Notes under the pieces: generated by a model
Seen by the model: the letters and a program-made list of their open reading frames with translations, nothing else
Told to the model about the DNA's origin: nothing
Databases searched by the model: none
Origin: a virus
IMG/VR virus record: IMGVR_UViG_3300008120_000012
Location: 1 to 64,000 of that record
Strand: one strand, 5' to 3'
Length of the DNA stretch: 64,000 bases
Program-made: the position numbers and the translations under genes
Shown: in pieces, positions 1,693-57,201 of the stretch
Numbering within the stretch: the first letter of the stretch is position 1
Layout of the letters: every line of letters starts with the position of its first letter

Positions 1693-3087
1693 ATGCCACA
1701 AATTGGTAGTGCATTAACTGGGTTAACACAGTTCAATGTTAATACTCAGATGCCTGCACTAACAGACAATGCAAATATTCAAGAAGCATTGCGTTTATAT
1801 CACTATGGTGCACCTTCAGGTACTGGAGTAGGTCAATATGATCCTACAAATACTGATCCAGTAAACCTTGTTAATCCATCAATAGCACATAGCCTATATA
1901 ATTTACAAACTCAGATAAGCAGCATTTCTGGATCACTTGGTGTACAAGCAGCAACATGGACATCTAAGGGTGCTTTGGTTTCTGCTACTGCTGCTGGAGC
2001 AGTTTCTGCATTAGTCCTACCTTCTCAATCAACTGCTAATGATGGATTTGTTTTAACTATTAACTACTCTGGTTCATCAACTGGTTTGGCTTGGGCATCT
2101 CCTCCAGTTACTCTTACTAATACTGTTACACTTACAAACAAAACTTTAACTGCTCCTAGAATTACATCTGCATCTCATATTGCAGACTCTAATGGTAATG
2201 AATTAATTATTTTCCCAACTGCTGTTGCTTCTGCTGTAAATGAAATTACTATTGCAAATGCTATTGCTACTGGAAAGCCTACTATTTCTGCTACAGGTGG
2301 AGATACAAACATTACTTTAAACCTTGTTTCAAAAGGAACAGGCACAGTCCAGGCTAACGGTGTTGATATTGATACAATTTCTGGTACCGCAACTTTAACA
2401 AACAAAACATTAACGTCTCCTACTATCAATACTCCTACAATTTCATCTCCTACCGTAACTCAACTTTATTTGTCTGACTCAGTTGTTATTTTTGAAGGAT
2501 CTAGTGCTGATGCAAATGAAACAACTTTAGGAGTAGTAAATCCAACAGCAGATAGAACAATTAATTTACCAGATGTTGATGGAACAGTTATTACTACTGG
2601 AAACTTAACTTCTATAACTGCCGTCGGAACAGTAACATCTGGAACATTCCCTGCTGCTAACTTAAGCGGAACTACTCTACCAGCAACGGTAGTATCTTCT
2701 TCACTAACCAGCGTTGGCACCCTTTCTTCTCTTTCAGTTTCTGGTGATCTTACTGTAAGTGGTAGGATGCTTGAGCGAATTTCTATAAATGCACAAACTG
2801 GAACATCGTATACAGTTATTGCTTCTGACGATAGCAAAATGATTGAAATGAATAATGCTTCTGCTAACACAATAACAGTTCCAAATCTTAGCACTATCCC
2901 AACAGGTGCAAAAATAAATATTGTTCAAACAGGAACAGGACAAACTACAATTGCTGCAGGAGCAAACGTAACTATTAATGGAACTCCTGGACTTAAGTTA
3001 AGAGCACAATGGTCTGGAGCAACCTTAATTAAAAGAAGCACAGGGGCAACGGACGTTTGGGTATTGCTAGGAGACCTTGTAGCATGA
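1693..3087 (+). CDS. tail fibre-like protein
   Basis: Thr/Ser/Gly rich with repeated TLTNKTLT and SSSLTSVGTL motifs. The C-terminal ~100 aa domain ending GDLVA is shared with 23354..24658. Confidence 0.75.
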   Translation: MPQIGSALTGLTQFNVNTQMPALTDNANIQEALRLYHYGAPSGTGVGQYDPTNTDPVNLVNPSIAHSLYNLQTQISSISGSLGVQAATWTSKGALVSATAAGAVSALVLPSQSTANDGFVLTINYSGSSTGLAWASPPVTLTNTVTLTNKTLTAPRITSASHIADSNGNELIIFPTAVASAVNEITIANAIATGKPTISATGGDTNITLNLVSKGTGTVQANGVDIDTISGTATLTNKTLTSPTINTPTISSPTVTQLYLSDSVVIFEGSSADANETTLGVVNPTADRTINLPDVDGTVITTGNLTSITAVGTVTSGTFPAANLSGTTLPATVVSSSLTSVGTLSSLSVSGDLTVSGRMLERISINAQTGTSYTVIASDDSKMIEMNNASANTITVPNLSTIPTGAKINIVQTGTGQTTIAAGANVTINGTPGLKLRAQWSGATLIKRSTGATDVWVLLGDLVA

Positions 3088-3764
3088 GTCCAATTATTCC
3101 AGCAGTTCCAGCATCTGGTGGCCATCAGCCAGGTACACCAACTGTAGGAACAGCAAGTGCTGGCAATGCTTCTGCAACAGTTGCTTTTACAGCGCCAGCA
3201 TATTTGGGAAAACCAACTGGAACAACTTATAGAGCAATAACTCAGCCAGTAGTTGTTAGAAGTACAACTGGAACAGTTGCAAACAATGTTCAAATCGGAT
3301 CTATATGGAGAGCAGATATTACTGGTATGTCTGCAGTTACAAACCTTTTTATTAATCAAGTAATTTCGGCAACAAACGGAACTGGATCTTTGGGCGCTGG
3401 TGTTGTTACAATTAAGGCTATTCCATCGTCTACCTCTCTTATTGTTGAGTCAACAGCAACAATGACAAATGGAACTATTACTAATATTTTAGGTGGAATT
3501 GTAGGTACTGGCTCAACATCTCCAGTTACTGTTAGCGGATTAACAAACGGAACAGCATATACTTTTAGACTTAACTTAGATAATACAGTTGTTCAATCTT
3601 TGCCAACAGGAGCAAGTAACTCTGTTACTCCAATTGCACCACCATTCTTCCCGCCATTCTTCCCGCCATTCTTCCCACCGTTCTTCCCACCGTTCTTCCC
3701 ACCATTCTTCCCACCGTTCTTCCCACCACCATACTTCTCATTCATCTGGGGCGCATCTCCTTAA
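3084..3764 (+). CDS. FN3-like domain virion protein (probable fibre tip) with C-terminal (PPFF)x7-PPPYFSFIWG tail
   Basis: ATG 3084 overlaps the upstream TGA (ATGA). FN3 motifs PGTPTVGTASAGNASATVAFTAP and VTVSGLTNGTAYTF...SNSVTP, then a Pro/Phe repeat tail. Confidence 0.75.
   Translation: MSPIIPAVPASGGHQPGTPTVGTASAGNASATVAFTAPAYLGKPTGTTYRAITQPVVVRSTTGTVANNVQIGSIWRADITGMSAVTNLFINQVISATNGTGSLGAGVVTIKAIPSSTSLIVESTATMTNGTITNILGGIVGTGSTSPVTVSGLTNGTAYTFRLNLDNTVVQSLPTGASNSVTPIAPPFFPPFFPPFFPPFFPPFFPPFFPPFFPPPYFSFIWGASP
3639..3722 (+). repeat. 12-bp tandem repeat x7 (ccRccRttcttc) encoding PPFF
   Basis: Seven in-frame units differing only by cca/ccg synonymous changes. Confidence 0.95.
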
Positions 3765-3796
3765 AATATAAGTTGATGTATGCTAGAATTAAAATT

Positions 3797-4537
3797 ATGA
3801 ACAAATTATTTGATAGTTTTTATTTCCTGCATGTTCCAAAAACTGCTGGTAGATTTTTTACACATAATATTGTTGTTCCATTAGACAAAATACTTAAAGA
3901 GCACGGTATAGAAAATTTTTACGATAGAGAAACTTATGTTGCTCATAGGTTTTGGGCAGACTTTATAACAGATAAAACATATGTTACTAGTTTGTTCAGA
4001 GATCCGATCAAGCATGCAGTAAGTTTTTATTCTCATTATGCAATGTTAGATAGAGGTGCTCAAAGAACTATGCCAGTCGGAGCGATGCAATTTAATAAAA
4101 ACACCATGATGGATTGGTTTGAAAATAATAGTCATAGAATTGGGAATATGCAATCTAAAAACTTTTTGTTATCAGATTTAGGTGGTAAAGAATATGGATT
4201 TATGAATAGTGAAAAGGTAATTAATTGTGAAATATCAAAAGAAATAATGATTGAAAGATTACAAGATGTTTCGCTATTAATTAAATCTGAACAATTACAT
4301 CATCAAAATATACAAAATGTTTTTGATAAAATACTTCAAGATTTAAAAATACCACAGCATCAAATTAAACATAATATTCAGAAGGCATCAAATTATTGGA
4401 ACCCTGATTCAACAAGAATATACAAAAGTTTAGATAATACAGACAGGAATAGAATTTTAGAGTGGAATAATGTAGACGCAGAGGTTTACCATACAGAGTC
4501 TGTATTCTATAATATAAATACGAAAGTTAATCAATGA
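3797..4537 (+). CDS. PAPS-dependent sulfotransferase family protein
   Basis: FLHVPKTAG (5'-PSB loop) and FRDP..HAVS (3'-PB) motifs. Start likely ATG 3797, 7 nt after TGCTAGAAT. Confidence 0.75.
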   Translation: MNKLFDSFYFLHVPKTAGRFFTHNIVVPLDKILKEHGIENFYDRETYVAHRFWADFITDKTYVTSLFRDPIKHAVSFYSHYAMLDRGAQRTMPVGAMQFNKNTMMDWFENNSHRIGNMQSKNFLLSDLGGKEYGFMNSEKVINCEISKEIMIERLQDVSLLIKSEQLHHQNIQNVFDKILQDLKIPQHQIKHNIQKASNYWNPDSTRIYKSLDNTDRNRILEWNNVDAEVYHTESVFYNINTKVNQ

Positions 4538-5034
4538 TAAAAGATATACAGTCAATAATTAATAATAATAAGATTATTTGGGAACAAAAAGAAACAAAAG
4601 AAGACTTGTTTCAATATAACTACTACATGCATTTTTTTTATTTATTTGATATTGATGAAAAATTATTTAAAGAAGGTAACAACTTTAAACTTGAAAAAAA
4701 TAAAAATCATGAAATTTGGAATTTAACAAATGAACTAATAAAAGAAATAGAATCTAAATATAATATGATTTCAGGTTCTGCATATTTTGTTAAATTAAAT
4801 CCACAACAATATCCTTTGCGTCAATACTATGAGTTTGAAGAATATGCAAGCATTATAAACAAATGTTATATTCCAATAATAACAAATTCTAATGCTTCAC
4901 TATGTGTTGATGATGAAATATATAACAATATCCCTGGTACAGAAACAATAGCACATAAAGAGCAGTTATCCTCATTGTATAATTTTGGAGAAACAGATAT
5001 TGTGTATTTAATTATTGATTTGATTGATAGATAA
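4534..5034 (+). CDS. aspartyl/asparaginyl beta-hydroxylase-like protein lacking the metal-binding His residues
   Basis: FVKLNP...YIPIITN...LYNFGETDIVYLIID follows the AspH-family scaffold, but the expected HxD and distal His are absent. Confidence 0.55.
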   Translation: MIKDIQSIINNNKIIWEQKETKEDLFQYNYYMHFFYLFDIDEKLFKEGNNFKLEKNKNHEIWNLTNELIKEIESKYNMISGSAYFVKLNPQQYPLRQYYEFEEYASIINKCYIPIITNSNASLCVDDEIYNNIPGTETIAHKEQLSSLYNFGETDIVYLIIDLIDR

Positions 5035-5118
5035 AATAATTATAATACATAGGGTTAAAATTCAAGTTTACAGAACTGCTTAACTATGATATACTAAATA
5101 AAAAACAAAGGAAAATTT

Positions 5119-5913
5119 GTGATAAAAAAAATATCAGAAGCAGTTTCAAATTTAATTATTTTTAGATCCTTCCGTCCTTGGCTCAATAATGAGAGTAACT
5201 CTGTTCCCTTGCCAACTCATAAAACAATGCCAAAATGGTACAAAGATGCAGATAGATTTGCAATTCATCCAATCACAAAAGATTATTATAAGGCGACAAA
5301 AGAAGTGTGTCCATTTCCACGACAAGGCACAACGGATGACTATGGCAAAATACCAACTTGGAAAGCATGCCCAGCAATCATGGATGGTTTTATTACAGGG
5401 TATGTTCTAAGAACTCCATGTGATATTACATTTTTTAAAGACAAGTATGGGAAAATAGATGTTAGTGTTAGTGATGAGAAGCATAAAGATTTTTGTACAA
5501 GGAGACAGCCTATGCCACAGTTTGAGCATCCACAGGGCTACTATCAAGAACATTTTGCATGGATGCCAGACTGGGGTCTAGAAGTTCCAGAAGGATACAG
5601 TTGTTTATATATGACTCCAATGAATAGATTTGACTTACCATTTTTAAATACAACTGGTGTTGTAGATAATGATAGCGTTCATATATCTGGAAGTTTTCCA
5701 TTTTTTGTAATTAAAGATTGGGAGGGAACAATTCCAGCAGGGACTCCGTACATGCAAATACTTCCTTTTAAAAGAGAAGATTGGACACATGAGATAGAGA
5801 TCTTGCAGCAAAAAGAAATTTATGATAGAATGATGGACAACATAAAACTATATCGTCAGCCAGACGGTGGGGTTTATCAAAATGACATTTGGACAAGAAG
5901 AGAGTATAAATAA
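5119..5913 (+). CDS. DUF6065-like (dUTPase-like fold) protein
   Basis: KACP...GYVLRTPCD, GYS...PMN...GVVDND and IPAGTP.MQILP; distantly paralogous to 6571..7287. Confidence 0.5.
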   Translation: MIKKISEAVSNLIIFRSFRPWLNNESNSVPLPTHKTMPKWYKDADRFAIHPITKDYYKATKEVCPFPRQGTTDDYGKIPTWKACPAIMDGFITGYVLRTPCDITFFKDKYGKIDVSVSDEKHKDFCTRRQPMPQFEHPQGYYQEHFAWMPDWGLEVPEGYSCLYMTPMNRFDLPFLNTTGVVDNDSVHISGSFPFFVIKDWEGTIPAGTPYMQILPFKREDWTHEIEILQQKEIYDRMMDNIKLYRQPDGGVYQNDIWTRREYK

Positions 5914-5914
5914 A

Positions 5915-6571
5915 ATGCAAACATGGAGTGCTAAAGAAGATCTTGGCAATGGAATTTATTGCTATAGAGATGTAATTAAACCAGAATTTGATATTATTAA
6001 CATATTAGAAAAAAATCTTGGCGCTATTGATAGCGAAAATGTTTTTAAGTGGAGACCAGCATATGTTGGTTATCAACAATTAATTCCAAGTTATCGTGAT
6101 TGTGTTGATTTTAAGTTTAAAAAAGAAGATATTCAACATATAGATACAGAAGAGTCATTAATTTTTCAAGATATGTGGCAAAAGGTTTATGATGCACAGC
6201 GTGTCGCAGTTGATGATTATCGTAAAGATTTTAATATTATGGATTTAAAATATTGGGAAGCCTTTAATTTTATTAAATATGGCCCAGGACAACACTTCCA
6301 AGAACATCATGATCATGGCTATTCTTATAACTGTACAGTTTCATTGGTTGCCTATGTTAATGATGATTACGAAGGTGGAGAGTTGTATTTTAGATTACAA
6401 AAAATGAACATCAAGCCAAAGGCTGGAGATTTATATGTGTTCCCATCTAACTTTATGTATCCACATCGTGCAATGCCCGTTCATTCTGGAACAAAGTATT
6501 CAATTGTAACAATGTTAGACTATAATAAAAAGTTTCATACAAGAGAGATGTATGTAGAAGACACAGAATAA
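5915..6571 (+). CDS. 2OG-Fe(II) oxygenase, prolyl 4-hydroxylase-like (#1)
   Basis: HHD, YVNDDYEGGELYF, distal H (PHRAMPV) and K (GTKYS). Start ATG 5915. Confidence 0.9.
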   Translation: MQTWSAKEDLGNGIYCYRDVIKPEFDIINILEKNLGAIDSENVFKWRPAYVGYQQLIPSYRDCVDFKFKKEDIQHIDTEESLIFQDMWQKVYDAQRVAVDDYRKDFNIMDLKYWEAFNFIKYGPGQHFQEHHDHGYSYNCTVSLVAYVNDDYEGGELYFRLQKMNIKPKAGDLYVFPSNFMYPHRAMPVHSGTKYSIVTMLDYNKKFHTREMYVEDTE

Positions 6572-7287
6572 TGAAAGTATCTGTTTATAAAATACCAAAC
6601 CATCCAGTTAAAATAGAACAAACTCAAGTTCAGAGGAACTGGATGGATGATACTTATGACAGACACGCATATAAATGCTTTCCTGTATCTCTTGCTAACT
6701 CCATTGGCTGGTCTATATCTTTTTTAGAAGACATAGAGTTTGTTTGGGATGGTGTTGTAGATACAACTCAAGATCATGTTAAAATATTAAAATCACCACC
6801 GAATGTTTGTAACTTAGGTCGTGGAAATGCAACAATAAGTTTTAATAGTGGTTTATATTTTCGTACTGATGAAAATACATCTATTATTTCTATTGTCCCA
6901 CCAAATTATTTTATAGATGGCGCAACACCATTTACGTCAATAATGTCTACTTCATTTTATGATGAGGCTTTTCCAATTGCATGGAGAATAACTAGGTCAC
7001 ATCAAAATATTGTAATTCCTGCAGGCACTCCAGTTGCTACATTAATTCCAGTTTCACTTGAAAAACTTTCTTTGATTGAGTTAGAGGTATATGACAAAAC
7101 TTTTGATCCAGAGGCCCTGCAAGAAAAAAGGGAATACCTAGAAGAATGGAAAAAAATATCAGAGCAGGGCAAGTTTAGTAATTTTTATAGAGATGCTGTT
7201 GATCATAAAGGGCAAAGCATAGGCAGCCATGAAAAAAAGTCTTTACACTTAAAAATAACAGATTTAACTACAAAAAACGAGAGGTGA
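6571..7287 (+). CDS. DUF6065 family protein
   Basis: RNWMD...HAYKCFPVSLANSIGW, PPNYFIDG and IPAGTP motifs. Confidence 0.65.
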   Translation: MKVSVYKIPNHPVKIEQTQVQRNWMDDTYDRHAYKCFPVSLANSIGWSISFLEDIEFVWDGVVDTTQDHVKILKSPPNVCNLGRGNATISFNSGLYFRTDENTSIISIVPPNYFIDGATPFTSIMSTSFYDEAFPIAWRITRSHQNIVIPAGTPVATLIPVSLEKLSLIELEVYDKTFDPEALQEKREYLEEWKKISEQGKFSNFYRDAVDHKGQSIGSHEKKSLHLKITDLTTKNER

Positions 7288-7299
7288 TATAATAATAAT

Positions 7300-8022
7300 A
7301 TGGAAATCACAAACAAGAATCACTTAGATAGAGTCGCAAAGTCTATTACGCCTTCTGGATTTTATGGAACTGGCAAAGACATGATTGTTGAACTTGAAAA
7401 CTTTATGACACAGGAAGAGATTGATTTTCTAGAAAATGCTGCAAAGTCTATAACTATTTGGGATGTTACAGAAAGTCATCAAAATGACAACGGTACTGTT
7501 ATTTATGATGCTAACTATTGGAAAGATAGAGTGGCAACTAGGTCTAGTCTAGATAAAAATGATCCCAGAATTGGTCCAGTAATTGAAGGCCTATTTAAAA
7601 AACTACAACCAATTATTGAAGACTTTTTTAAAGTTAAAGTTCAACCAACTGGACAAACAATTGTAAGATGGCTTCCTGGACAATTTCAAAAACCACATGC
7701 AGACAAAGAACTTCATGAGGGTCCTGATGCTGGACTGGCTAATGATTTTCCATACTATGATCTTTCAAGTTTATTTTACTTAAATGATGACTACGAGGGT
7801 GGAGAGTTATATTTCCCGTTGCAAGATGTTAAGTTTAAACCAAAAAAAGGTGCAGCATATTTTTTCCCAGGAGACATGAACTTTATCCATGGAGTTACAG
7901 AAATTAGAAATGGTATTAGATACACCTGTCCATTCTTTTGGACCATTTTAGAACATACTGGAGAAGTAAAGCCAAATCAAAATGAAAAGTACCACAGGAC
8001 ATTGTTGGATGGTGATAAATAA
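7300..8022 (+). CDS. 2OG-Fe(II) oxygenase, prolyl hydroxylase-like (#2)
   Basis: HAD, YLNDDYEGGELYF, HGV, GIRY. Confidence 0.9.
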   Translation: MEITNKNHLDRVAKSITPSGFYGTGKDMIVELENFMTQEEIDFLENAAKSITIWDVTESHQNDNGTVIYDANYWKDRVATRSSLDKNDPRIGPVIEGLFKKLQPIIEDFFKVKVQPTGQTIVRWLPGQFQKPHADKELHEGPDAGLANDFPYYDLSSLFYLNDDYEGGELYFPLQDVKFKPKKGAAYFFPGDMNFIHGVTEIRNGIRYTCPFFWTILEHTGEVKPNQNEKYHRTLLDGDK

Positions 8023-8024
8023 AT

Positions 8025-8765
8025 ATGAAAGAGATTAGATATTCAGAGGATATTTTAGTATATGAAGATTTTCTTACACCTGAAGAATGTCAAAAAATTA
8101 TTGATGTTTTAAATTTGCAGGTAAAGAATGAAACAATGCAATGGACACCTATAACATTTTACGAATCATATTCATCTAATTTACCAAAAGATAATGATCC
8201 AGAAATTTTAGAATGTGGTTTGCCAGGAACCTTTTTTTCAGATATTGAACAAAAGATTATAGAGATAACTGCAAAGATTCATAATAAAGATCCAAAACAG
8301 ATGTCTAAAATTGGATATCACACACAAAAATGGGAAAAGGGAGCATATGCTACTGTACATGCTGATAACTCATATAATGATGGAACTCCAAGTCCATTTG
8401 AAAGAAGTAGATATGCAACGTTTGTATATTTAAATGAAGATTTTGAAGGTGGGATATTAAATTTCCCAGAACGACAAATACAGATAAAACCTAAAACTGG
8501 GCTACTTGCTGCTTTTGCTGGAGATTACACAAATTTGCATGAAGTTACAATGATTACAAAAGGCACTAGATATACCTTGGGATCTTTTTGGGATGATAGG
8601 GACGCTGAAGACTATCCAGAAGAAGTAAGAAATAGATGGGAAGAAGAAATGAAAAAAATTAGAGAGTCTCAAGAAGAAACAAAGGCTGAATGGAAAGAGT
8701 TGTTAGACGAAGGATACAAGATTGATCCTATCGGAAATAAATACAAAGTGGAGGAACAAGCATGA
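8025..8765 (+). CDS. 2OG-Fe(II) oxygenase, prolyl hydroxylase-like (#3)
   Basis: HAD, YLNEDFEGG, HEV, GTRY; charged helical C-terminal extension. Confidence 0.9.
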   Translation: MKEIRYSEDILVYEDFLTPEECQKIIDVLNLQVKNETMQWTPITFYESYSSNLPKDNDPEILECGLPGTFFSDIEQKIIEITAKIHNKDPKQMSKIGYHTQKWEKGAYATVHADNSYNDGTPSPFERSRYATFVYLNEDFEGGILNFPERQIQIKPKTGLLAAFAGDYTNLHEVTMITKGTRYTLGSFWDDRDAEDYPEEVRNRWEEEMKKIRESQEETKAEWKELLDEGYKIDPIGNKYKVEEQA

Positions 8766-9532
8766 AGTTAGAGAAAAGGTTACATGAAAACATCTATTAC
8801 TATACAGATGTTTTGCCAGATCATGAAAAATTTCTTAATTTAATTTTAGAGACAGATGGTAATCCAGACATACAGCCAGTAATTCCATCATGGCAAAAGT
8901 GGCTTTCTAACTCAAATGACGGCTACTCCTTTGGTGGTAAAAAAGATATGCAGCCAAACAATTTGCACCTACTTTCTGGTGAAACAAAAGAGAAGGCAGA
9001 GTACATTGTTGACTCAATATTAGGTTCAATAAAAAAGGTTGCAGAGGCTTTCATACAAGATAGAGGGCTAGACATACCAAATCCAAACCTTTCTCCTTTT
9101 GCTGGAATAATGAAATATATTCCAGGATTAGAAATGGGTGCACATTTTGATGCACAGGCTGGAGATGAAAGTCTTTGGTGGTCTATTATAGTTTATGTAA
9201 ATGATAACTATGAGGGCGGAGAACTTTCTTGGATTCTTCATGATAAAGATCTAAGAGATCCACAGTACAGCCATTTGAAGCCACACTCAGATATTAATGA
9301 CCCTAGAAATGAGGAACTTGTTGACTTTTGGATTAAGCCAGTTGCAGGATCTGCATTGATCTTTCCATCTACTTTCCCATATCGTCATCAAGTACATTTA
9401 ATGAAGTCTGGTGATAAGTATATGTTCCCTGGTTTTATTTTTAAAGATGGATATGATCCATCAGATCCAGAATCTATTGAAAAATTTAATGGTGGCTCAA
9501 AGGTGGTAAAAAAGAGTCCATATGAACAATAA
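8762..9532 (+). CDS. 2OG-Fe(II) oxygenase, prolyl hydroxylase-like (#4)
   Basis: HFD, YVNDNYEGGEL, HQV, GDKY. Confidence 0.9.
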   Translation: MKLEKRLHENIYYYTDVLPDHEKFLNLILETDGNPDIQPVIPSWQKWLSNSNDGYSFGGKKDMQPNNLHLLSGETKEKAEYIVDSILGSIKKVAEAFIQDRGLDIPNPNLSPFAGIMKYIPGLEMGAHFDAQAGDESLWWSIIVYVNDNYEGGELSWILHDKDLRDPQYSHLKPHSDINDPRNEELVDFWIKPVAGSALIFPSTFPYRHQVHLMKSGDKYMFPGFIFKDGYDPSDPESIEKFNGGSKVVKKSPYEQ

Positions 9533-10334
9533 TTTTGATTATAGTAATGATTCTTATGATATAGAATTTTTACATCCCAAGGTTTGGTTATTTAAAAATG
9601 CCTTCAAGCATAGTAAAGAAATTATTGATTACTTTGAAAAAAACCATGAATGGAGAAAATGGGAAATTTTTGGTACAGAGTCCAAAATATCAACACCAGA
9701 AAAAACATATTCTAACTTTCCGACCAAAGAAGAATGGAAAAATGATATAGTTGATCATGTTAATAATGAATATGTAACAGAATTTTTGTGGGTATTTTAT
9801 AATACAACAAAATTGTTTTGTGAAAAATTAGATATTAAAAAGGATAACTGGATTTTTACAACAACTGAAATATCAAAATATTATGAAAATATGGGTGTAT
9901 CTAATGATGGCGCTATGAACTTTCATACTGATCATGAACAAGAAAAAGAATCTGAAGAAGGAATTAAATTTGGAACTGCTTGTTTAGTTTATTTAAATGA
10001 TGACTATGAAGGCGGAGAGATTGTTTTTAGAATATCAGATGATAGTTTTAGTAAGGTAGTTGATGAATTTTCCTATAAGCCAAAAACTGGCGATGTGTTA
10101 GTTTTTCCATCAGAACATCCGTTTTATCACGCAGTAAATGCAATTAAAAATAAACAAAAATATTTAATAAGACATTGGTGGAGACATTGGTACCAAGGCA
10201 GTCAAGAATTTATAGATCTAAAGAATAAGTTTATGTTAGAAAATAATCCAGAAGACTGGGAAAAATATTTAATAGATTATCGTAGATCAAAAAGAATTAA
10301 CATAGATACTATTATAAACCAATTACAAAAATGA
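9522..10334 (+). CDS. 2OG-Fe(II) oxygenase, prolyl hydroxylase-like (#5)
   Basis: HTD, YLNDDYEGGE, HAV, QKY. Confidence 0.9.
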   Translation: MNNNFDYSNDSYDIEFLHPKVWLFKNAFKHSKEIIDYFEKNHEWRKWEIFGTESKISTPEKTYSNFPTKEEWKNDIVDHVNNEYVTEFLWVFYNTTKLFCEKLDIKKDNWIFTTTEISKYYENMGVSNDGAMNFHTDHEQEKESEEGIKFGTACLVYLNDDYEGGEIVFRISDDSFSKVVDEFSYKPKTGDVLVFPSEHPFYHAVNAIKNKQKYLIRHWWRHWYQGSQEFIDLKNKFMLENNPEDWEKYLIDYRRSKRINIDTIINQLQK

Positions 10335-11002
10335 TACTAAATAAAAAAGCCTTAGTTATTGGAGGAACCTCTAGCATATCCCATGAAATAATTGAAACAC
10401 TTAATAGCAACGGGTATTTTGTTGATTTAACTTATAATAATATAGAAAATTTTAAAAAAAGAAACATTTATTCTGATAAATATGTAAGTTGGCATTATTT
10501 AAACCTGCACGATCTTGATTGTATAAAAAATTTTATAAATACAAAAATAGAAAACTATTATTCTATTGTAGTTTTTATTTCAATGACGTCTCCTGGTAAT
10601 TTTATGGAAAATACTGAAGAAGAACTTGTTAATTTTTATGGCAAATATCTTGTTAATAATATGTTGATGTCAAAATATTTATTAAATAAAATTACTAATG
10701 ATGGTAAAATTATCTATATATCCTCTATTGCAGTTACTAAACCAGTTCCACAAATTAATTATGCAACTATAAAAGGTGCCCTACAGTCTTTTTACGTATC
10801 GCTATCAACCAATGTTAAACCAACACAGACTGTCATATCCATAATTCCAGGGCTAATATATGATACCCCCGCTTTTTATAGGTGTAGTTTGGACATGATA
10901 GACAATATAGATAACCTAGCAAAAAAACAAGAAATTGCTGATATAATAATTAACTGTAGTCCAAAAGATAATGGAACTCTCATTAGAGTAGGGAAAGACT
11001 AA
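10331..11002 (+). CDS. short-chain dehydrogenase/reductase (SDR), divergent
   Basis: ALVIGGTSSIS Rossmann start, IIYISS, YATIK (YxxxK), IIPG. Confidence 0.75.
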   Translation: MILNKKALVIGGTSSISHEIIETLNSNGYFVDLTYNNIENFKKRNIYSDKYVSWHYLNLHDLDCIKNFINTKIENYYSIVVFISMTSPGNFMENTEEELVNFYGKYLVNNMLMSKYLLNKITNDGKIIYISSIAVTKPVPQINYATIKGALQSFYVSLSTNVKPTQTVISIIPGLIYDTPAFYRCSLDMIDNIDNLAKKQEIADIIINCSPKDNGTLIRVGKD

Positions 11003-11003
11003 T

Positions 11004-11465
11004 ATGGAGCAATTAAAAGTAGAGCATAGCGACATGGTTGATGACTATATAAGTCAGGTTAAAGATAAAACTGCTAATTCTTATATGCTAACAATTGCTA
11101 GAGACGGAGAAGAGCCAGTTAGAACTATTATATTTTATGATAATGCTATAGATGCTGCATTTGCTTATAATAAATATACAGACTGGGGTTTTGCAAGAAA
11201 ATTTTTAACTGTTAAATTATATGAACCATCTGGAAAAATAAATGAAAAAGTTCTTGTTAGAGATCAGGCTGGAGAATGTACCTTTATAAGACAGGACTAT
11301 ATAGATTTTGAAAATTTATTGTTTATTTATAAAGATAAAATTGAAAAAGATGTTTATGACTCTTTAGTATTTGATGTTATGAAAATTTTTGCTAAGGATA
11401 ATTGGAGGTTTAATCCAGAAAGATTTTTATTAGCATTAGGTGTAAATAAAAGGTTAGAACTATGA
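11004..11465 (+). CDS. hypothetical protein
   Basis: 153-aa ORF tightly packed in the operon; no catalytic motif recognised. Confidence 0.6.
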   Translation: MEQLKVEHSDMVDDYISQVKDKTANSYMLTIARDGEEPVRTIIFYDNAIDAAFAYNKYTDWGFARKFLTVKLYEPSGKINEKVLVRDQAGECTFIRQDYIDFENLLFIYKDKIEKDVYDSLVFDVMKIFAKDNWRFNPERFLLALGVNKRLEL

Positions 11466-12082
11466 AATATGAGTTTTTAGAAAATAACATTGTTTACTTT
11501 GAATCTGTAATACAAAATGTTCAAGATATTATAGACACAATGGAAGGCTTATCAAATCCAGCAGTTACTGACTGGGAGGCATGGTATGCATATAATACAA
11601 CAACAAGATATGGCGATATAAAATACTTGTGCAAAAAAGAACTAATCGGTATTGAAGATAGAATTATTAAAGAAAAATCACAATTTGTTATTGAATCCTT
11701 AATTAATAATATGTGTGCTTGTATTGATAAATATGGAGAATTGTTTAATATTAATACAAATAAAATGATATTTGCTAAAGAAATTTTAAACAATGACTTC
11801 ACTAAGATTGGCATCTATAAATATTCTCAAAATGCAACCATGGGACCACATGTTGACTGGAATGATGACAATAATTATTTAGAATATACTATAGTTGTAT
11901 ATCTTAATGACGACTACGAAGGTGGAGAGTTGTACTTCAATGAATTTGATATTAAACTAAAGCCAAAGGCTGGTAGCATTGTTATGTATCCATCAGTTAA
12001 ACCATACACACACGAATCTTTAAAAGTGGTAAGTGGAAGAAAATGTTTGATTACTCATCATTGGAGAAATGATGAAATTTAA
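11462..12082 (+). CDS. 2OG-Fe(II) oxygenase, prolyl hydroxylase-like (#6)
   Basis: HVD, YLNDDYEGGELYF, HES, GRK. Confidence 0.9.
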   Translation: MKYEFLENNIVYFESVIQNVQDIIDTMEGLSNPAVTDWEAWYAYNTTTRYGDIKYLCKKELIGIEDRIIKEKSQFVIESLINNMCACIDKYGELFNINTNKMIFAKEILNNDFTKIGIYKYSQNATMGPHVDWNDDNNYLEYTIVVYLNDDYEGGELYFNEFDIKLKPKAGSIVMYPSVKPYTHESLKVVSGRKCLITHHWRNDEI

Positions 12083-12091
12083 GGAGCCACT

Positions 12092-12760
12092 ATGGAATTA
12101 AAACCAATACAATCAACAACGTTAATGGATTATGAAAGTGGTCAAAATGTTGAAGTAAAGCAGTTTCAAGTAGAAGACTTAATTTTAAATCATGAATTTG
12201 CCACACCCCACGCAGGCTTTGCCCTTAGATTCAATAACGATAAAAAAGACGGTACCTTTTTAGAAATTGGTGCATGTCATTGGAAGCAGGGTAATAATAC
12301 ATATCTTTTAGAAAAAGAATTTAATTGGAAAGGTGTTGCTATTGATATAGTGAAACATTTTGCTGACGACTATAATATAAATAGATCAAGTCACTGTATA
12401 CATGGAGATGCTTTTTCATATAATTGGGATCAGTATTTAAGTGAAAACAATTTTCCAAAAAGAATAGATTATTTGCAAATAGATGTTGATAAAACACCAG
12501 ATTGGGCAAATTTATTTGCTTTGCTTAATGTTCCATTATCTAGATACAGATTTAATACAATTACTTTGGAGCATTGTGCAAATATGGATCCAAGACTAAT
12601 GAAAATGAGAGATTTACAAAGAGAGATTTTATTTTCTTATGGATACAGAATTGTTGCTGCTGGGTATGATGAGGATTGGTGGATAGATTCGCAACTAGGA
12701 ATTAGTGAGTCAGAATTTAATTCAATTTCTTATCAAGCATGGGCTAAAAAGTTTATTTAA
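12092..12760 (+). CDS. FkbM-like SAM-dependent methyltransferase
   Basis: GTFLEIGA motif I, NNTYLLEKEFNWKGVAID, IDYLQIDVD, ITLEH. Confidence 0.75.
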   Translation: MELKPIQSTTLMDYESGQNVEVKQFQVEDLILNHEFATPHAGFALRFNNDKKDGTFLEIGACHWKQGNNTYLLEKEFNWKGVAIDIVKHFADDYNINRSSHCIHGDAFSYNWDQYLSENNFPKRIDYLQIDVDKTPDWANLFALLNVPLSRYRFNTITLEHCANMDPRLMKMRDLQREILFSYGYRIVAAGYDEDWWIDSQLGISESEFNSISYQAWAKKFI

Positions 12761-13296
12761 AAATTTTTAATAAAACTTGTGTTTTCATTACCTTTTATAA
12801 AAATAGTAAACATATATCTAGTGCCAGTTTCTACTGGAAGGACAGAATGCCAATAGTCCCATTTATGAACTATAACAGATTTTGCTTTAGGTTTTATTTT
12901 ATAATCTAATTCTGGGTAATATAGTTCCCCACCTGTAAAATTATCATTAACATAAAAAACTGCTCCAAATACAATATTTGTATTGGTGCCAGATGGATCA
13001 AAATCTTGATGCTCACTCATATACATTCCATCTTTTAGTCTTTGTAAATCAATTACTTCTAAATATGAAGTATAGTTTTTAAAATATTTCATTAGTTTTT
13101 CTTCTAAACTTCTAAAAGTTGGTATTATTTCTGTTTTAAAATTATTAATATTATAGTTTCTTCCACCAACATCTTGCCATTCATTTTCAGAAACGTGATC
13201 TATAGCATCATTTAGCAATGCAATTTCTTCATTTGTAATAAAGTTTTCCAGTTCCCAGATATAATCATGGTGTTGTATTATATTTATATTATACAT
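12757..13296 (-). CDS. 2OG-Fe(II) oxygenase, prolyl hydroxylase-like (#7)
   Basis: HQD, YVNDNFTGGELYY, HSV, GTRY; its stop overlaps the convergent gene at TTAA. Confidence 0.9.
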   Translation of the reverse strand: MYNINIIQHHDYIWELENFITNEEIALLNDAIDHVSENEWQDVGGRNYNINNFKTEIIPTFRSLEEKLMKYFKNYTSYLEVIDLQRLKDGMYMSEHQDFDPSGTNTNIVFGAVFYVNDNFTGGELYYPELDYKIKPKAKSVIVHKWDYWHSVLPVETGTRYMFTIFIKGNENTSFIKNF

Positions 13297-13941: not shown

Positions 13942-13970
13942 AGTATAACACCTAAAAATGTTATTGTCAA
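13942..13970 (-). promoter_or_regulatory. strong sigma70-type promoter for the lysozyme-like gene
   Basis: Minus strand TTGACA-17-TATACT with an extended TG. Confidence 0.75.
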
Positions 13971-14008
13971 ATGGGCTTTTTAATAAAAAACTAAAAAATC
14001 TTTTAGCA

Positions 14009-14017
14009 TGCTATAAT
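14009..14017 (+). promoter_or_regulatory. extended -10 promoter of the fibre operon
   Basis: TGCTATAAT 9 nt before ATG 14027. Confidence 0.6.
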
Positions 14018-14026
14018 AGAAACACT

Positions 14027-48307: not shown

Positions 48308-48308
48308 T

Positions 48309-51300
48309 GTGTGGCAAAATGATGAATTAAAAAATCATTTAGAAACATCTTTTACTGTTCAGTCTCAAACTGCAGTAGTTGCTGAATGGAATATGAACGT
48401 TCCTGGTAATATTTTTAAAATGGGTAATTATAGATATCGTAAAAATGATTCTACTTCTGATTATTTTAAAATTCCAAACTTTTTTGATCCACTTGATGAA
48501 AGTAATCATTATACCAATGCAACTGATTCAGATGTTGTTATAGAAAGTGGATTAGAAACAGATACAGTAACTCCATTATTGTTTACGTATACTAAAGAGT
48601 TAGAAAAATTATACTATTCCCTAGAAGATTGTTTTAAACCATACAGGCCAAGATCAGGAATTAACAAGGCATCATTTTTTAATAATAAATATTTTTCTCA
48701 TCCAAATCAAGATATGTATTTAAGACCAAGATATTATATGCCACACCGAGATGACCAATTTAAGTATTGGAGATCTTACAGAACCGAAAGTTTAGCATTA
48801 GAAGATGGATACGTAACTATACAAAGTAATAGTATCCCAATCCCATTGACTAGCGATAATAGCAACAAAGAGTACGGTATATCAAAATATGATAACGCTA
48901 ATGGTATATATTCAATTGACGATGCTTGTCCTTTCGTTGTTTATAAAGAGTCAGTTCCAGCAAATAGAATTATATGCAAAGTACAAACTAACATTGGAGA
49001 TATAAATCTTGGACCGTTTAAAAAAGATGGAGAAATTTTAAATGATCCATTTTATGGTCAAGAAAATGCAACAACTCCTGTAAGATTTACTATTCAATAT
49101 TTAAGTGAATATAATGAGTGGATAGATGCCTATTCATTTAATGAAGATTCGCTAAGGGATGATAATACTGATATTTTTAATAGTGACGGGTATCTAAGTT
49201 TACAGTATGGGCTAGAAGTTCCAGATGCTTTTAAAGATAACTTTATTCTTGTAGGAACATCTACATCTGCTTCATCACTACCAACAAACAATGTAAAGGG
49301 ATATGCCTATTTAGTTAAAAGTACATCTTCTAGTCTTGGTATTTTGTATATTTGGAATGGCTCTGGATATTCTCAATTTACTCCAAAGTACAGTTGGAAA
49401 ATTGGAACTGACGGTGTATATGAAAATACACAATTTGTTACTGATTTTACAAATCCAGATTATTTTATAGATAGCAATGTTTTTGGTAAAATATTTAGAG
49501 AGTTTGTTTTTATTAAAGGTCTTAGAGTTGTTGTAGAAACAATGAATGTTCCAAATGTACCATTTGAATTAATTGAACTATCTCCTAGACTAGTAGCAGA
49601 TATGACTAATAAAACTATTAGTTTTTCAACTAGTAAAGTTTTATCTGATTTGGGAAATTCGTCTATACCCGTAGGAAATTTGCTGGCATCTACTGGGTCC
49701 ATATCTATTTTTGACAATGATAGTTCTTTCAATGAAAATAATATTTGGGATGGAAATGAAGGAAGTATAATAGCAAAATATTTTGATAAAACAATTAAGT
49801 TCAATATATACGAGGTTATCAGAGAAGTAAATGATGTTAACTATTACATTCCAATAAAAACTTTGTACACTGAGGGAATGCCACAAACAAACGCTATAGA
49901 TGGCAACATAAGTTTTGCATTACGAGATTTTTATTTTTATTTTGAATCAGTTAAGGCTCCAGAAATATTAATAACAGAAGCATCTTTAAGTCAGGCAGTG
50001 GCTATTCTTTTAGACCATATTGGTTTTTCTAATTACATTTTTAAAAGACTTTCTAATGAAAAAGATCCTATAATTCCATACTTTTTTGTTGCTCCAGAAC
50101 AAAACGTTGCAGAAGTTTTAAGACAACTTGCAATATCTACACAATCAGCAATGTATTTTGATGAATACAATAATTTTGTAGTTGTTAGTAAAAATTATTT
50201 ATTAGATGAAACTGACGAAAGGCCAGTAGACATTGTGTTATATGGATCTAATAATTCATCAGAAGTTGGTATAAACAAAAACGTATACCCAAACAAACTT
50301 TCTAATATTATAGGAATATCTTCTCAAAACAAAAAAATATATAATGATGGTAATATTACATATACTGAAAGATATATTCAAAGATCTTATGGAAGTATTA
50401 AACAATCTCAAATGGTTGACCAAGATAAAACTTTTATATATAAACCAGTTTTGTTATGGGAAGTTTCTGGATCTGCTAAAACAAAAACGGCAAATAATGA
50501 AATGCAGTCAACATATGTATTGAGCGCATTACCATTAAACTCTGATCTTGATAATAATCCACCAAGTGTAGTTAATAATATTTTGATTAATAATACTATT
50601 GATTTTGGAGAAAATGTATATTGGCTTGGAAGATATCAAGGATACTTCTATGCTGCTGGAGAAATAATTAGATTTGATGCAGTTCAATATAATATACCAG
50701 GGGTGGGCAATGAATGGATAACCAGTGGTTTAGAGTATCAAAAATATTTTTCACAACTGCCATTTAATGGAAAGATGTATCCTACTGGATTAGTAAGAAT
50801 ATACGCAGAGCCATATTATGAAACAATTAATGGCAATACTGTGTTAAAAAACGGCGAGGTAGCACAACACGGCAGAGAACAATTTGGAACTACTATACAA
50901 TATCATAATGCTGGATTAGATAGTTATTGGTCAAGCAATGATTATGTTCAGGGTTGCGATATGCAATCAGAGTTACTGTATACAACAAAAATTGACCCTA
51001 CACTTCCTGCAGTTACCAATGGTGTTGCTGGTCTAAATAAAAGTAAAGCAGAAAAATCAAAAAGAAATGGTATTATTAAAAACTTATTTGCAACTTCATA
51101 TGCAACTGAAACAGATGTACCATTATTAAAAACTACTCAAACTGGAACAATACAATCTTCCGCTCTTGTTTTTAATGGACCTATATTTGAAGCCACAGAA
51201 AAATCAAGGGACTTTGTTTCATATGTTTGGAAAGAGTTAGACAGGCCTTTTAAATGTTTTGGAACAAGAATGAGAATTATTGGAAGAATTGAATCTAACG

Positions 51301-52712
51301 GAGAATCAAATCAAACACCAGTAGGATCAACTACATATTTTAATATAACTGGCATAGATCCAACAAAAACAGTTACGCTGGGTGGAGGCTCTGGAGGTAT
51401 TTGTCTTGTTAATCCAACAACAAATCAGGGTTATTACTTTGAAATTGCAGCCCTGACATCTTCTAATTTAAATAAATATTTAAATACAAACTCAAGTGGT
51501 GAGGCAACTAACAATCTAGACAACATTTTATTTTATAAGGTGCAAAGAAATTCTAGCACTGGAAGGGCAGTACCAGTAAAACTATGGGGCGGTATAGGAA
51601 ATATACTAGTTGACAGTGGTGAGTTTACTGGACAGTATAGAGTAGTTAATGAAAAAAATCCTACAGTATATGATTTAACAATAGAGTATATGGATATAAA
51701 TTCTAACAGAAGAGTGTTTTATTTATATATTAATAATAAATTAGTTCAAGTTGTTACTGACACATCTCCTATACCAATTACTGGAAATCAGGTTGGACTC
51801 TTTGTGCGTGGCTCAACAAAAATTATGTTTGAAAATATTTATGCACTTGGACAAAATTACTCTCAAAATTCTTCATTCCCAACTGGAATTCCAATCTCTA
51901 AAGTTTTTGGTGATGATGATGGAGAGATTAATGCAAATGAGTCTTTGAGTAAATATGCTATGAGTGGTATTATACAAAAAACATACATGAAAGGCATTAT
52001 GCCGATGTGTATGCCAGTATATGATATTTTTTATGATGAATTTGGTACTATTATGAGAGAGGCATCTTATTTTAAAGTTAAATATGATAAAGCATATCCA
52101 GCATTATATGCAAAAATAGCAGCAACTTTTAATAGGTTAAAGGGCTATGTTATCTCTGGTTTTATGGCAGAATCATACGGTGCAGAATTTTTAGTATTTA
52201 ACGCTACAGATACTACAATTAGTTTAGATGAAACAAGTGGCAACTATTTAAGAATTCAAGGCATAACATTTACGCAAGATACCACTCATACTTTAACAGT
52301 AGATGAGTATTATAAAAAACGAGGTAACTTGTCTGACCCTGAATTAAAGGGAAATGTATTGGTAACATCACCACAAAGATTTATTGATGAATATGATTCT
52401 ATTCGTGTTAGCAGAATACAATATGGAAGAAATGAATTTACATTACAAGGTGTATATATTCAAGATCAAGACACGGCAGAGGATATACTAGGTTGGGTTA
52501 TTGGCAAAACATCTAAGCCTAAAAAAACTATCGGTATGGAAATATTCTCTATACCAACGCTTCAATTAGGAGATATAATTAATATTGATTATAAGACAGC
52601 AGATGGTGTTGATGTTATTTCTGACTCCAGCACAAGGTATGTTGTATATCAAATTGATTATGGTAAAAGTGTTGATGGCCCAATAATGTCTTTATATGCG
52701 GTGGAGGTGTAA
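48309..52712 (+). CDS. large tail tip / baseplate hub protein
   Basis: 1467 aa after Dit; VLRQLAISTQSAMYFDEYN and PTLQLGDII hub motifs; GTG start. Confidence 0.7.
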   Translation: MWQNDELKNHLETSFTVQSQTAVVAEWNMNVPGNIFKMGNYRYRKNDSTSDYFKIPNFFDPLDESNHYTNATDSDVVIESGLETDTVTPLLFTYTKELEKLYYSLEDCFKPYRPRSGINKASFFNNKYFSHPNQDMYLRPRYYMPHRDDQFKYWRSYRTESLALEDGYVTIQSNSIPIPLTSDNSNKEYGISKYDNANGIYSIDDACPFVVYKESVPANRIICKVQTNIGDINLGPFKKDGEILNDPFYGQENATTPVRFTIQYLSEYNEWIDAYSFNEDSLRDDNTDIFNSDGYLSLQYGLEVPDAFKDNFILVGTSTSASSLPTNNVKGYAYLVKSTSSSLGILYIWNGSGYSQFTPKYSWKIGTDGVYENTQFVTDFTNPDYFIDSNVFGKIFREFVFIKGLRVVVETMNVPNVPFELIELSPRLVADMTNKTISFSTSKVLSDLGNSSIPVGNLLASTGSISIFDNDSSFNENNIWDGNEGSIIAKYFDKTIKFNIYEVIREVNDVNYYIPIKTLYTEGMPQTNAIDGNISFALRDFYFYFESVKAPEILITEASLSQAVAILLDHIGFSNYIFKRLSNEKDPIIPYFFVAPEQNVAEVLRQLAISTQSAMYFDEYNNFVVVSKNYLLDETDERPVDIVLYGSNNSSEVGINKNVYPNKLSNIIGISSQNKKIYNDGNITYTERYIQRSYGSIKQSQMVDQDKTFIYKPVLLWEVSGSAKTKTANNEMQSTYVLSALPLNSDLDNNPPSVVNNILINNTIDFGENVYWLGRYQGYFYAAGEIIRFDAVQYNIPGVGNEWITSGLEYQKYFSQLPFNGKMYPTGLVRIYAEPYYETINGNTVLKNGEVAQHGREQFGTTIQYHNAGLDSYWSSNDYVQGCDMQSELLYTTKIDPTLPAVTNGVAGLNKSKAEKSKRNGIIKNLFATSYATETDVPLLKTTQTGTIQSSALVFNGPIFEATEKSRDFVSYVWKELDRPFKCFGTRMRIIGRIESNGESNQTPVGSTTYFNITGIDPTKTVTLGGGSGGICLVNPTTNQGYYFEIAALTSSNLNKYLNTNSSGEATNNLDNILFYKVQRNSSTGRAVPVKLWGGIGNILVDSGEFTGQYRVVNEKNPTVYDLTIEYMDINSNRRVFYLYINNKLVQVVTDTSPIPITGNQVGLFVRGSTKIMFENIYALGQNYSQNSSFPTGIPISKVFGDDDGEINANESLSKYAMSGIIQKTYMKGIMPMCMPVYDIFYDEFGTIMREASYFKVKYDKAYPALYAKIAATFNRLKGYVISGFMAESYGAEFLVFNATDTTISLDETSGNYLRIQGITFTQDTTHTLTVDEYYKKRGNLSDPELKGNVLVTSPQRFIDEYDSIRVSRIQYGRNEFTLQGVYIQDQDTAEDILGWVIGKTSKPKKTIGMEIFSIPTLQLGDIINIDYKTADGVDVISDSSTRYVVYQIDYGKSVDGPIMSLYAVEV

Positions 52713-52716
52713 AACT

Positions 52717-53532
52717 ATGGCAATGAGTGCATCAGAATGGGATGACTTAAATAGTATGCTCCCTGCAGAAGACCAAATGTCTTATCAAGATTATTTGGCT
52801 TCAGTTACTCCAGCATCAGATCCAAACGCAGATACTTTTAGTCCATCATTCACTGACTACTGGTCTAATTCTGGAGACTATTGGATGGCCATGGGTGATA
52901 AATATGCTGCAGAGGCTGCTGCTGCTACGCCATACATTGCACCGCCATACTTTTCATTTATTTGGGGTGGCGCTCCAAGAGAAACGCCTCCTGCTGAGCC
53001 GTACGTTCCTCCATACGTTCCGCCATACGTTGCTCCATATGTCCCTCCATATGTTCCTCCATATTTCCCCTCAACTCCTCCACCCCCTCCACCCCCTCCA
53101 CCGCCTCCACCACCTGTAAAAACGGCTACTCCTCAATATGTACTATTTGATGATGACGAAGTTCCTATTGATGCTATAGTAGATCTTTTATTTGAAGATA
53201 TTGGTGGACAAGAATTATTGTTAACAGGTAGATTTGATACTATTAATGGAATAGATGTTGCATATCAGCCAATCGCTAATCTTGGTATTATTAATGAAGA
53301 ATACAACCCAAACAATATTATTAGGTTACAAAATACATCTGATAAATTCTTTGCAAACTATACAATTAAATTATCAGAAAGAATACCAGTGGTAGGCAAT
53401 GGTCCAAATGGCGATAATGTTTACTTAGATTCTAGTGGTAATCTTGTAATTGAATTTGTTAATCTTCAAAATGATGAGCAGGTTGAGGTTCAGGTTACAT
53501 TAAATGGTACAATATATGAGATAGGAATATAA
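52717..53532 (+). CDS. tail-tip-associated protein with Pro/Tyr-rich N-terminal extension
   Basis: ATG 52717 after the SD ggaggt. Contains PPYFSFIWG, (xPYV)x5 and a 13-Pro run before a globular acidic C-terminal domain. Confidence 0.7.
   Translation: MAMSASEWDDLNSMLPAEDQMSYQDYLASVTPASDPNADTFSPSFTDYWSNSGDYWMAMGDKYAAEAAAATPYIAPPYFSFIWGGAPRETPPAEPYVPPYVPPYVAPYVPPYVPPYFPSTPPPPPPPPPPPPPVKTATPQYVLFDDDEVPIDAIVDLLFEDIGGQELLLTGRFDTINGIDVAYQPIANLGIINEEYNPNNIIRLQNTSDKFFANYTIKLSERIPVVGNGPNGDNVYLDSSGNLVIEFVNLQNDEQVEVQVTLNGTIYEIGI
52999..53115 (+). repeat. PYVP tandem repeats and polyproline-13 tract
   Basis: PYVPPYVPPYVAPYVPPYVPPYFPST then 13 Pro codons (53077-53115) using mixed synonymous codons. Confidence 0.9.
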
Positions 53533-56893: not shown

Positions 56894-57201
56894 TGGCTGA
56901 TCGTAAGGACCGCATGGCACTTCTTAGCCGATATAATAAATATCATTTGCAACGATATGAAAAAAAGGCTAATTTAAATCTTAATGTAGAGCAGTGGGCT
57001 GCTGATGCACTGGTTGAGTCATATGGCTTGCCTATTTGTTATGATATTTTAGAATACTACTTTAAGGTAAGTCAGACACCATCGTGGAACTTTTTTGCTT
57101 ACAATGCAGAAAAAATATTACAGGCTAAAGAAGACAGAGAGCAAGACAATAAAGAGAGGGCAGAAAGAAGAGAGATGGCTAGGAAGTGGTTAAGTGAATA
57201 A
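56893..57201 (+). CDS. hypothetical protein upstream of the helicase
   Basis: Coupled to neighbours on both sides. Confidence 0.6.
   Translation: MADRKDRMALLSRYNKYHLQRYEKKANLNLNVEQWAADALVESYGLPICYDILEYYFKVSQTPSWNFFAYNAEKILQAKEDREQDNKERAERREMARKWLSE

Follow-up and report, generated by a model that had tools for sequence, protein, structure and literature searches.

A 16-residue proline- and aromatic-rich tag shared by unrelated tail-region proteins of uncultured water phages

The DNA analysed here (the window) comprises the first 64 kb of an IMG/VR virus record 94.6 kb long (G000; estimated 88% complete, GC content ~35%) from an uncultured water phage. It contains two tail-region genes whose products share, in frame, the nonapeptide PPYFSFIWG (Table 1). 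The first encodes an FN3-like fibre-region protein (P0001), and its start was taken as the ATG that overlaps the upstream stop codon (ATGA); a (PPFF)7 tract is followed by PPYFSFIWGASP and then by the stop codon. The second encodes a baseplate-region protein (P0002) and is flanked on one side by a minor-tail-like gene of 1467 aa and on the other by a 506-aa tail-protein gene. Its start was placed by homology, since relatives begin M-V/A-M-S, and its interior reads PPYFSFIWGGAP, then PYVP repeats, then 13 prolines. Pfam and PHROGs returned nothing for either tag-bearing protein.

Table 1. Features of the window at and around the two copies of the shared peptide
Feature	Positions	Strand	Description
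FN3-like fibre-region protein gene (P0001)	3084..3764	+	N-terminal FN3-type domain with insertion, (PPFF)7 tract, tag at extreme C-terminus
Aromatic-proline tract	3630..3713	+	PIAPP then FFPP units, upstream of tag; Phe codons nearly all TTC
Tag copy 1	3714..3761	+	16-residue module PFFPPPYFSFIWGASP, then stop codon; nonapeptide 3726-3752
Enzyme cassette by copy 1	3773..13296	.	
Sulfotransferase-like gene	3773-4537		Directly after copy 1; nothing in Pfam; likeness from language-model features and Atlas predicted structure (TM 0.6-0.7)
Weak AspH-like gene	4534-5034		
Six PF13640 prolyl-hydroxylase-like oxygenase genes	5867-12082		Above Pfam gathering score
DUF6065 gene; SDR gene	within 3773..13296		
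One further oxygenase-like gene	12757-13296	-	
Baseplate-region protein gene (P0002)	52717..53532	+	Variable N-extension and conserved C-terminal domain of ~140 aa
Tag copy 2	52930..52977	+	16-residue module PYIAPPYFSFIWGGAP, protein-internal; nonapeptide 52942-52968
Linker, (PYVP)n repeats and 13-proline run	52996..53121	+	Joins tag region to conserved domain
Conserved C-terminal domain	53122..53529	+	Only part common to all homologs; many homologs consist of this domain alone (~160 aa)

The initial annotation had described the nonapeptide as identical in two otherwise unrelated genes and as differing only synonymously, and both statements hold. Five of the nine codons differ between the copies, all five synonymously and with no replacement. 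Independent codon draws from G000 codon usage gave a mean of 3.66 differences, with a probability of 0.26 for five or more; because the five observed are no fewer than independent choice would yield, the DNA bears no trace of common descent beyond the peptide. BLASTP of the two proteins found a single significant local match, the 16-residue module (PFFPPPYFSFIWGASP against PYIAPPYFSFIWGGAP, 11/16 identities, E 7e-6). The resemblance said to extend into the flanks was borne out in part: both copies match the full module, their own first halves being degenerate, while the TPIAPP stretch upstream of copy 1 lies outside it, being the conserved FN3-to-repeat junction of the whole family, 28 residues upstream. 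No further copy of the nonapeptide exists in the full 94.6-kb record, and the remaining 9-mers common to more than one gene of G000 are all in clear paralogs. Shuffling whole proteins never produced a common word longer than seven residues, and shuffling only the two Pro/aromatic-rich tails produced a common 9-mer in one of 5000 trials. Chance is excluded as the source of the shared nonapeptide. Two LWGG stretches considered as third and fourth copies, KSLWGGRF in the tail of a protease/scaffold protein (34383-34427, ending ..KSLWGGRFLKSTDLFN) and KLWGGIG in the 1467-aa tail protein (51582), were set aside; they are too short, match only the W-G-G part without PYF-PPP-YF-S, and are probably chance.

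Twenty-seven instances of the module were collected from the window, close homologs of P0002, IMG/VR contigs (four of these records being read whole in all frames), one metagenome contig (L185) and two profile-search fragments. Their consensus is P-Y-F-P-P-P-Y-F-S-x-x-W-G-G-(G/A)-P, of which the nonapeptide forms the core. Invariant residues are the Pro at position 1, the Trp, the second Tyr with the Phe that follows it, and the Pro-Pro directly preceding that Tyr; after the Tyr-Phe pair, every instance has Ser or Thr. A one-off duplication matched in no relative, the outcome that would have counted against a tag, was thus not what we found; the peptide recurs in related records and in further proteins. 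A back-translated YFPPPYF[ST]xxW pattern had matches in five IMG/VR contigs and none in 185,579 prokaryote genomes, and a tag profile gave three matches, all phage-like fragments, among 1.84 billion representative proteins and none in the PDB at E 10. There was no match to cultured phages by megablast of both regions or tblastn of P0002. The tag was absent, in any frame, from 160 loci of the two host families, and a region-restricted homolog search with the tag region returned 77 candidates with one weak match. On these searches, only a narrow group of related uncultured phages carries the module. In two other searches, the exact back-translated nonapeptide matched once in IMG/VR, in the wrong frame and strand and hence spuriously, and a loose motif pattern run against metagenome contigs gave, among the matches listed, nearly all chance hits or unrelated bacterial proteins, only L185 being real.

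A WhiB gene is present in three of the five tag-bearing records (G000, G001 and G002; in G000 it lies beyond the window at 82609-82782 and scores 44 bits), which suggests that these are probably phages of aquatic actinobacteria. The G000 portal is ~45% identical to portals of large Streptomyces siphophages, and the host of G000 itself is probably an actinobacterium.

The tag is hosted by six unrelated architectures. It forms the C-terminus of FN3-(PPFF)n proteins in G000, G001, G005 and probably G004. Tail-fibre-like proteins carry three internal copies on PVAP linkers and one terminal copy (G001, G002, G006, L007) or, as a variant, two internal copies and one terminal copy on PFFPPTFTA-type spacers (L185). 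A G004 fibre of 694 aa, which has Listeria-Bacteroides repeats, is the third architecture; in the baseplate-region family the tag lies in the N-extension, and in a CHAP lysin of G002 it lies in the C-terminal tail. The last is P0243, an 85-aa metagenomic mini-protein that is strongly basic, stands alone and is made up of two tags with a PVAP linker between them. Tags in fibres lie in the C-terminal half, copies inside a single fibre differ among themselves, and Lys-rich tails adjoin the tags of the lysin tail and P0243. AF2 modelling of the two-tag mini-protein gave no secondary structure (pTM 0.14), which would fit a short linear motif, as weak evidence. The tag does not look like a C-terminal sorting signal of the LPXTG, PEP-CTERM or GlyGly-CTERM kind, for no hydrophobic helix follows it and many copies are internal.

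The FN3-like protein belongs to a large family from uncultured phage (IMG/VR) contigs, with a common plan of N-terminal FN3-type domain, aromatic-proline tract and variable C-terminal end. The window protein has no Pfam match at E 0.01; PF00041 (fn3) is precomputed in many of its homologs, at E 7.5e-9 in the G001 counterpart, and the N-domain, interrupted by an insertion, is conserved in the family alignment. The C-terminal end may be empty, or it may hold a Hint-like domain, Cys-rich modules, extra FN3 domains or a Peptidase_S74-like chaperone. The closest homolog (P0123, 73% identical) has a different end and no tag.

Several side observations concern this family and its neighbours. FN3-like relatives (L095:2501-4700 and others among L091-L170) have alternative self-processing ends, either Hint-like with Cys/Ser at +1 or Peptidase_S74-like, so that the mature protein would end in the Pro-Phe tract; two genes with Hint-like or S74-like ends sometimes lie side by side. 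Thirteen residues, ISATNGTGSLGAG, are common to the FN3-like protein and a 2119-aa virion protein (13958-20317), which suggests that the insertion in the FN3 domain is a module also present in the larger protein. The virion structural genes at 1693-3087 and 23354-24658 are paralogous over their C-terminal ~100 residues, with common runs up to VTINGTPGLKLR, and fall in the same PHROG families. In the aromatic-proline tracts and tags (window 3630-3761 and the G001-G005 copies), Phe and Tyr codons mostly end in C: TTC stands at each Phe position in 11 of 14 copies and makes up 19% of Phe codons genome-wide in this AT-rich phage; copy 2 of the window has TTT instead.

The baseplate-region family is larger still. 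LysM (PF01476) occurs in eight of 120 listed homologs of P0002 and, in the one read (P0029), is located in the N-extension; P0002 itself matches no Pfam family at E 0.01, so that its N-extension has no LysM match. In three close homologs the N-extension holds PYFPPPYF-[ST]-x-L-W-[GS]-G once or twice (P0003, for example, reads PPYFSFLWGGAP), and other close homologs (P0004/5) have PYV repeats and no tag. AF2 modelling of P0002 with 28 homologs gave a mean pLDDT of 60, with values below 50 for both the conserved domain and the tag region. The first ~40 residues of P0002 (52717-52840; SEWD.LN..LP.EDQMSY) are common to P0003, P0017, P0019 and P0077; being modelled as helical at pLDDT 96, this stretch may form a small interaction motif of its own.

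That selection acts on the peptide, and that the peptide is portable, had both been proposed at the outset, and the wider sample argues for both. Besides the synonymous saturation seen in the window, pairwise comparison of 14 DNA copies at conserved module positions gave 371 synonymous and 52 replacement codon differences, and the differences among the copies of G001, G002 and the window are mostly synonymous. In the G002 CHAP lysin the tag is an 18-aa insert; the G001 ortholog, 95% identical over 188 residues, lacks it, as does the G000 lysin ortholog. Likewise, the closest orthologs of the window proteins occur tagged (P0003) and tagless (P0123, P0004/5). Two tagged genes of G004 share a 79-nt identical block that codes for 26 residues and has sharp borders and unrelated flanks on both sides; this looks like a recent short-patch copy, with the proviso that one copy lies near a contig end, which leaves a small chance of an assembly join. 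The question had also been raised of whether a genome carries matching tags in two of its proteins. Three lineages do have the same variant in two different proteins: S-F-I-W-G-(G)-A..P in the window, S-x-N-W-G-(G)-R-V-N-P in the G001 group, and S-P-Y-W-S-D-Y-R-L-K... in G004. These variant matches, together with the 79-nt block, the synonymous divergence and the tagless 95%-identical lysin ortholog, support a portable module under selection, which the tag very probably is.

As to function, we favour binding to the host envelope as the main role, with a probability of about 0.4. The tag would be an exposed, unfolded linear peptide, probably hydroxylated, that binds one common target, most plausibly a component of the host cell envelope, and would serve as a miniature wall-binding or adhesion unit. 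The module is copied between genes by short DNA patches, after which purifying selection keeps the peptide. It lies in variable regions of its host proteins (fibre C-termini, the baseplate-region N-extension, the CHAP lysin tail), where it can be added singly or in arrays of two to four on flexible Pro-rich linkers, and the phage's own prolyl-hydroxylase-like oxygenases would probably hydroxylate its Pro-Pro-Pro core. Envelope binding is favoured because the tag stands where baseplate-region homologs carry LysM, which is an argument from position only, and because in the lysin it follows the CHAP domain, the usual site of lysin wall-binding domains. Also in favour are the tags in the C-terminal half of fibres, as arrays on flexible linkers, and the Lys-rich tails beside some tags. 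The closest functional parallels would be LysM, choline-binding repeats and SH3b. The tag shares with these units its locations (a lysin C-terminus, the distal part of fibres and, in a baseplate-region protein, the end that varies), its use alone or in tandem on flexible linkers, and its exchange between proteins. Unlike them, it has only 16 residues (Pro, Tyr, Phe, Trp), no predicted fold and no sequence relation to them, and its binding is putative; indeed, sixteen residues without a predicted fold would seem small for a specific wall-binding unit.

The main rival is that the tag serves in assembly or docking, and we regard this as possible, though on the unlikely side. Tags would bind each other, as an aromatic-proline zipper, or a common virion receptor, so that the FN3 fibre, other fibres, the lysin and the two-tag linker protein would be wired onto the baseplate-region protein. 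The matching of variants within records, seen in three lineages, fits this role equally well. P0243, with two tags and basic ends, resembles a cross-linker, and relatives of the FN3-(PPFF)n proteins end in trimerisation or self-cleaving modules (Peptidase_S74-like, Hint-like). Relatedly, behind the terminal tags of G004 (20860-20938 and 56925-57003; L306, L307) and L185 (547-620), an S74-type start (SDYRLKENV.. or SDYRLKNDIE) runs for only its first 10-22 residues before a stop codon. However, fibres usually attach to the virion by the N-terminus and bear their tags in the C-terminal half; the copies of a single fibre are not identical to each other; and no partner gene was identified. The tagged lysin, moreover, resembles on inspection a lysis-cassette endolysin, and its G000 ortholog is preceded by a small protein that, again by inspection only, looks holin-like, with hydrophobic segments. 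When the tag region of P0002 and the P0001 tail were modelled as a complex, without controls, the score was 0.00, which speaks neither for nor against binding. The nearest parallels for docking are the T4 capsid-targeting sequence and the anchor modules of receptor-binding proteins, where likewise one short peptide is found on unrelated proteins of one phage in lineage-specific variants; the tag differs from them in composition and position, may occur in several copies per protein, and has no known reader protein.

It is unlikely that the tag is only a structural end-cap, that is, the last turn of a PPYF/PPFF stalk, a relic of where an S74 chaperone, since lost, was joined, spread by recombination with repeat DNA and having no ligand of its own. 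Peptidase_S74 (PF13884) is a C-terminal domain of ~100-150 aa that starts at a conserved Ser (S-D-x-R-x-K-x-N-I), and the terminal tags of G004 and L185 look as if the chaperone domain had been cut away just past the cleavage serine. Those truncated starts would fit such a relic, as would the PYFPPP or PFFPPP units that always precede the tag and the similar end of the tract in S74-bearing relatives (..PPNFY then SDERDK..). Nevertheless, no aromatic-proline tract accompanies the tag in P0243, in the CHAP lysin or in the Flg_new fibre, where PTPPVG linkers precede it; internal copies of the tag sit on PVAP linkers, and W, S and G-G are under strong purifying selection. Nor is the tag itself a Peptidase_S74 domain, since the window copies have no S74-type start and full S74-like ends were seen only in tagless relatives. 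In its position at the C-terminal end of fibres, where relatives have S74- or Hint-like ends, it recalls both Peptidase_S74 and the T4 fibritin foldon, but it is too short for either and is also found internally, in an N-extension and in a lysin.

The cassette downstream of copy 1 is orthologous to the cassettes next to tagged FN3-type proteins in G001, G004 and G005. Six window genes and neighbours of tagged genes in G002 and G004, among them the genes that immediately follow the fibre of G004 and the lysin of G002, belong to PF13640, of the collagen-type prolyl 4-hydroxylase superfamily; the nearest solved relative, matched weakly (E 0.001), is the P4H of Bacillus anthracis (3itq/5hv0). All five tag-bearing records with enough sequence have 5-13 PF13640-type genes each. 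Water-phage genomes hold many collagen-type 2OG oxygenases, the substrates of which, to our knowledge, have never been shown.

The proposal that the tag is a recognition sequence for this cassette was weakened by the wider comparison. In its full form, a leader-like sequence would recruit the oxygenase, sulfotransferase or glycosyltransferase cassette to the adjoining Pro-rich tract and would have no later role; we consider this quite unlikely. A 2OG-oxygenase-like gene does lie within four genes downstream of eight of the nine tagged genes, immediately downstream in four. This proximity is modest by permutation (p 0.11 for three genes or fewer, 0.03 for mean distance), and these statistics are confounded by shared ancestry. 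The invariance of the Ser/Thr and Trp residues and the sulfotransferase-like gene after copy 1 would also suit recruitment, as would the genes after the G001 and G002 fibres, where a weak O-FucT-like gene and then a sugar dehydratase/epimerase gene come after a distant 2OG-like lead. Yet P0002 has no enzyme neighbour, and of 80 loci of the FN3/Pro-repeat family, 37 show an oxygenase within the 2.5-kb flank and all 80 lack the tag. The tagless G001 lysin ortholog has the same oxygenase neighbour as the tagged one, so that this adjacency predates the tag, and different oxygenase paralogs adjoin different tagged genes, no single tag-specific paralog being found when one was looked for.

What the oxygenases follow appears to be something broader. 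In deduplicated loci, an aromatic-proline tract and an oxygenase were associated (19/7/10/24; odds ratio 6.5, Fisher p 0.0015), and nine of the ten oxygenase loci without an aromatic tract have other Pro-rich tandem repeats, the exception (L091) having a Hint-like end. This association and the repeats in the nine exceptions indicate that oxygenases track Pro-rich repeats in general, not the tag; the repeat types accompanying them are PPFF, PPVT, PT and PPPIIAT. No oxygenase was found at the 80 loci of the baseplate-region family, for which the flanks were shorter (1.5 kb). The tag is therefore not a required handle of the oxygenases, and its Pro-Pro-Pro core is plausible as a substrate. We would put hydroxylation of that core by phage oxygenases at slightly below an even chance.

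Two further observations concern sugar-related enzymes. The block after the multi-tag fibre is conserved between G001 (100790-104018; L304) and G002 (47905-51822; L310), in the order 2OG-like, weak O-FucT-like, GDP-sugar dehydratase/epimerase and transglycosylase-like; in L185, the fibre and the transglycosylase are present and the three intervening enzymes are absent. Beyond the window, G000 encodes a GT60-type GlcNAc transferase (84182-84979; PF11397, E 3.7e-44), and no such enzyme was found in the four other tag-bearing records.

A reading that gives the enzymes a larger part is an extensin-like surface chemistry, in which oxygenases and, depending on lineage, sulfo- or glycosyl-transferases would decorate the Pro-Pro-Pro/Tyr/Ser core, and the modified tags would act as a wet adhesive among virion parts and the host wall. 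Tags on fibres, the baseplate-region protein, the lysin and the free two-tag mini-protein would then stick to one another or to the wall. We think this rather improbable. The prolyl 4-hydroxylase of chlorovirus PBCV-1 reportedly acts on the virus's own Pro-rich repeats, and the likeness to these and to plant extensin and PRP repeats lies in peptides rich in Pro-Pro-Pro and Tyr being encoded beside collagen-type prolyl-hydroxylase-like genes (PF13640). In contrast to extensins and PRPs, however, the tag has no PPVYK units and no Ser-Pro4 block in any of the 27 instances (extensins being recognized by Ser-Pro3-5 blocks), has an invariant Trp-Gly-Gly, and is a single module rather than a long repeat; its hydroxylation is putative. 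A second parallel is the mussel foot protein decapeptide AKPSYPPTYK, in which Hyp, DOPA and Lys provide wet adhesion. The tag is likewise a Pro/Tyr peptide, sometimes with Lys-rich flanks, in an aquatic setting with hydroxylases at hand, but this is analogy and not homology, and no ring-hydroxylation enzyme was identified.

That the match is a one-off decaying duplication, or a coincidence in low-complexity sequence, is extremely improbable: both proteins are rich in Pro and aromatic residues, which makes short matches easier, but the shuffle tests, the 27 instances in other contigs and proteins, and synonymous saturation with zero replacement all argue against it.

The tag provides a defined, strongly selected short peptide with which the oxygenases of water phages can be tested, and it is available both as the free 85-aa P0243, a handy natural test substrate, and as the 18-aa insert of a lysin that is otherwise nearly unchanged, so that hydroxylation and binding lend themselves to direct tests. 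Should it prove to be a wall-binding or docking unit, it would rank among the smallest portable targeting modules that phage particles are known to carry, and would explain how fibres, baseplate and lysin can be re-equipped with the same specificity via short-patch recombination.
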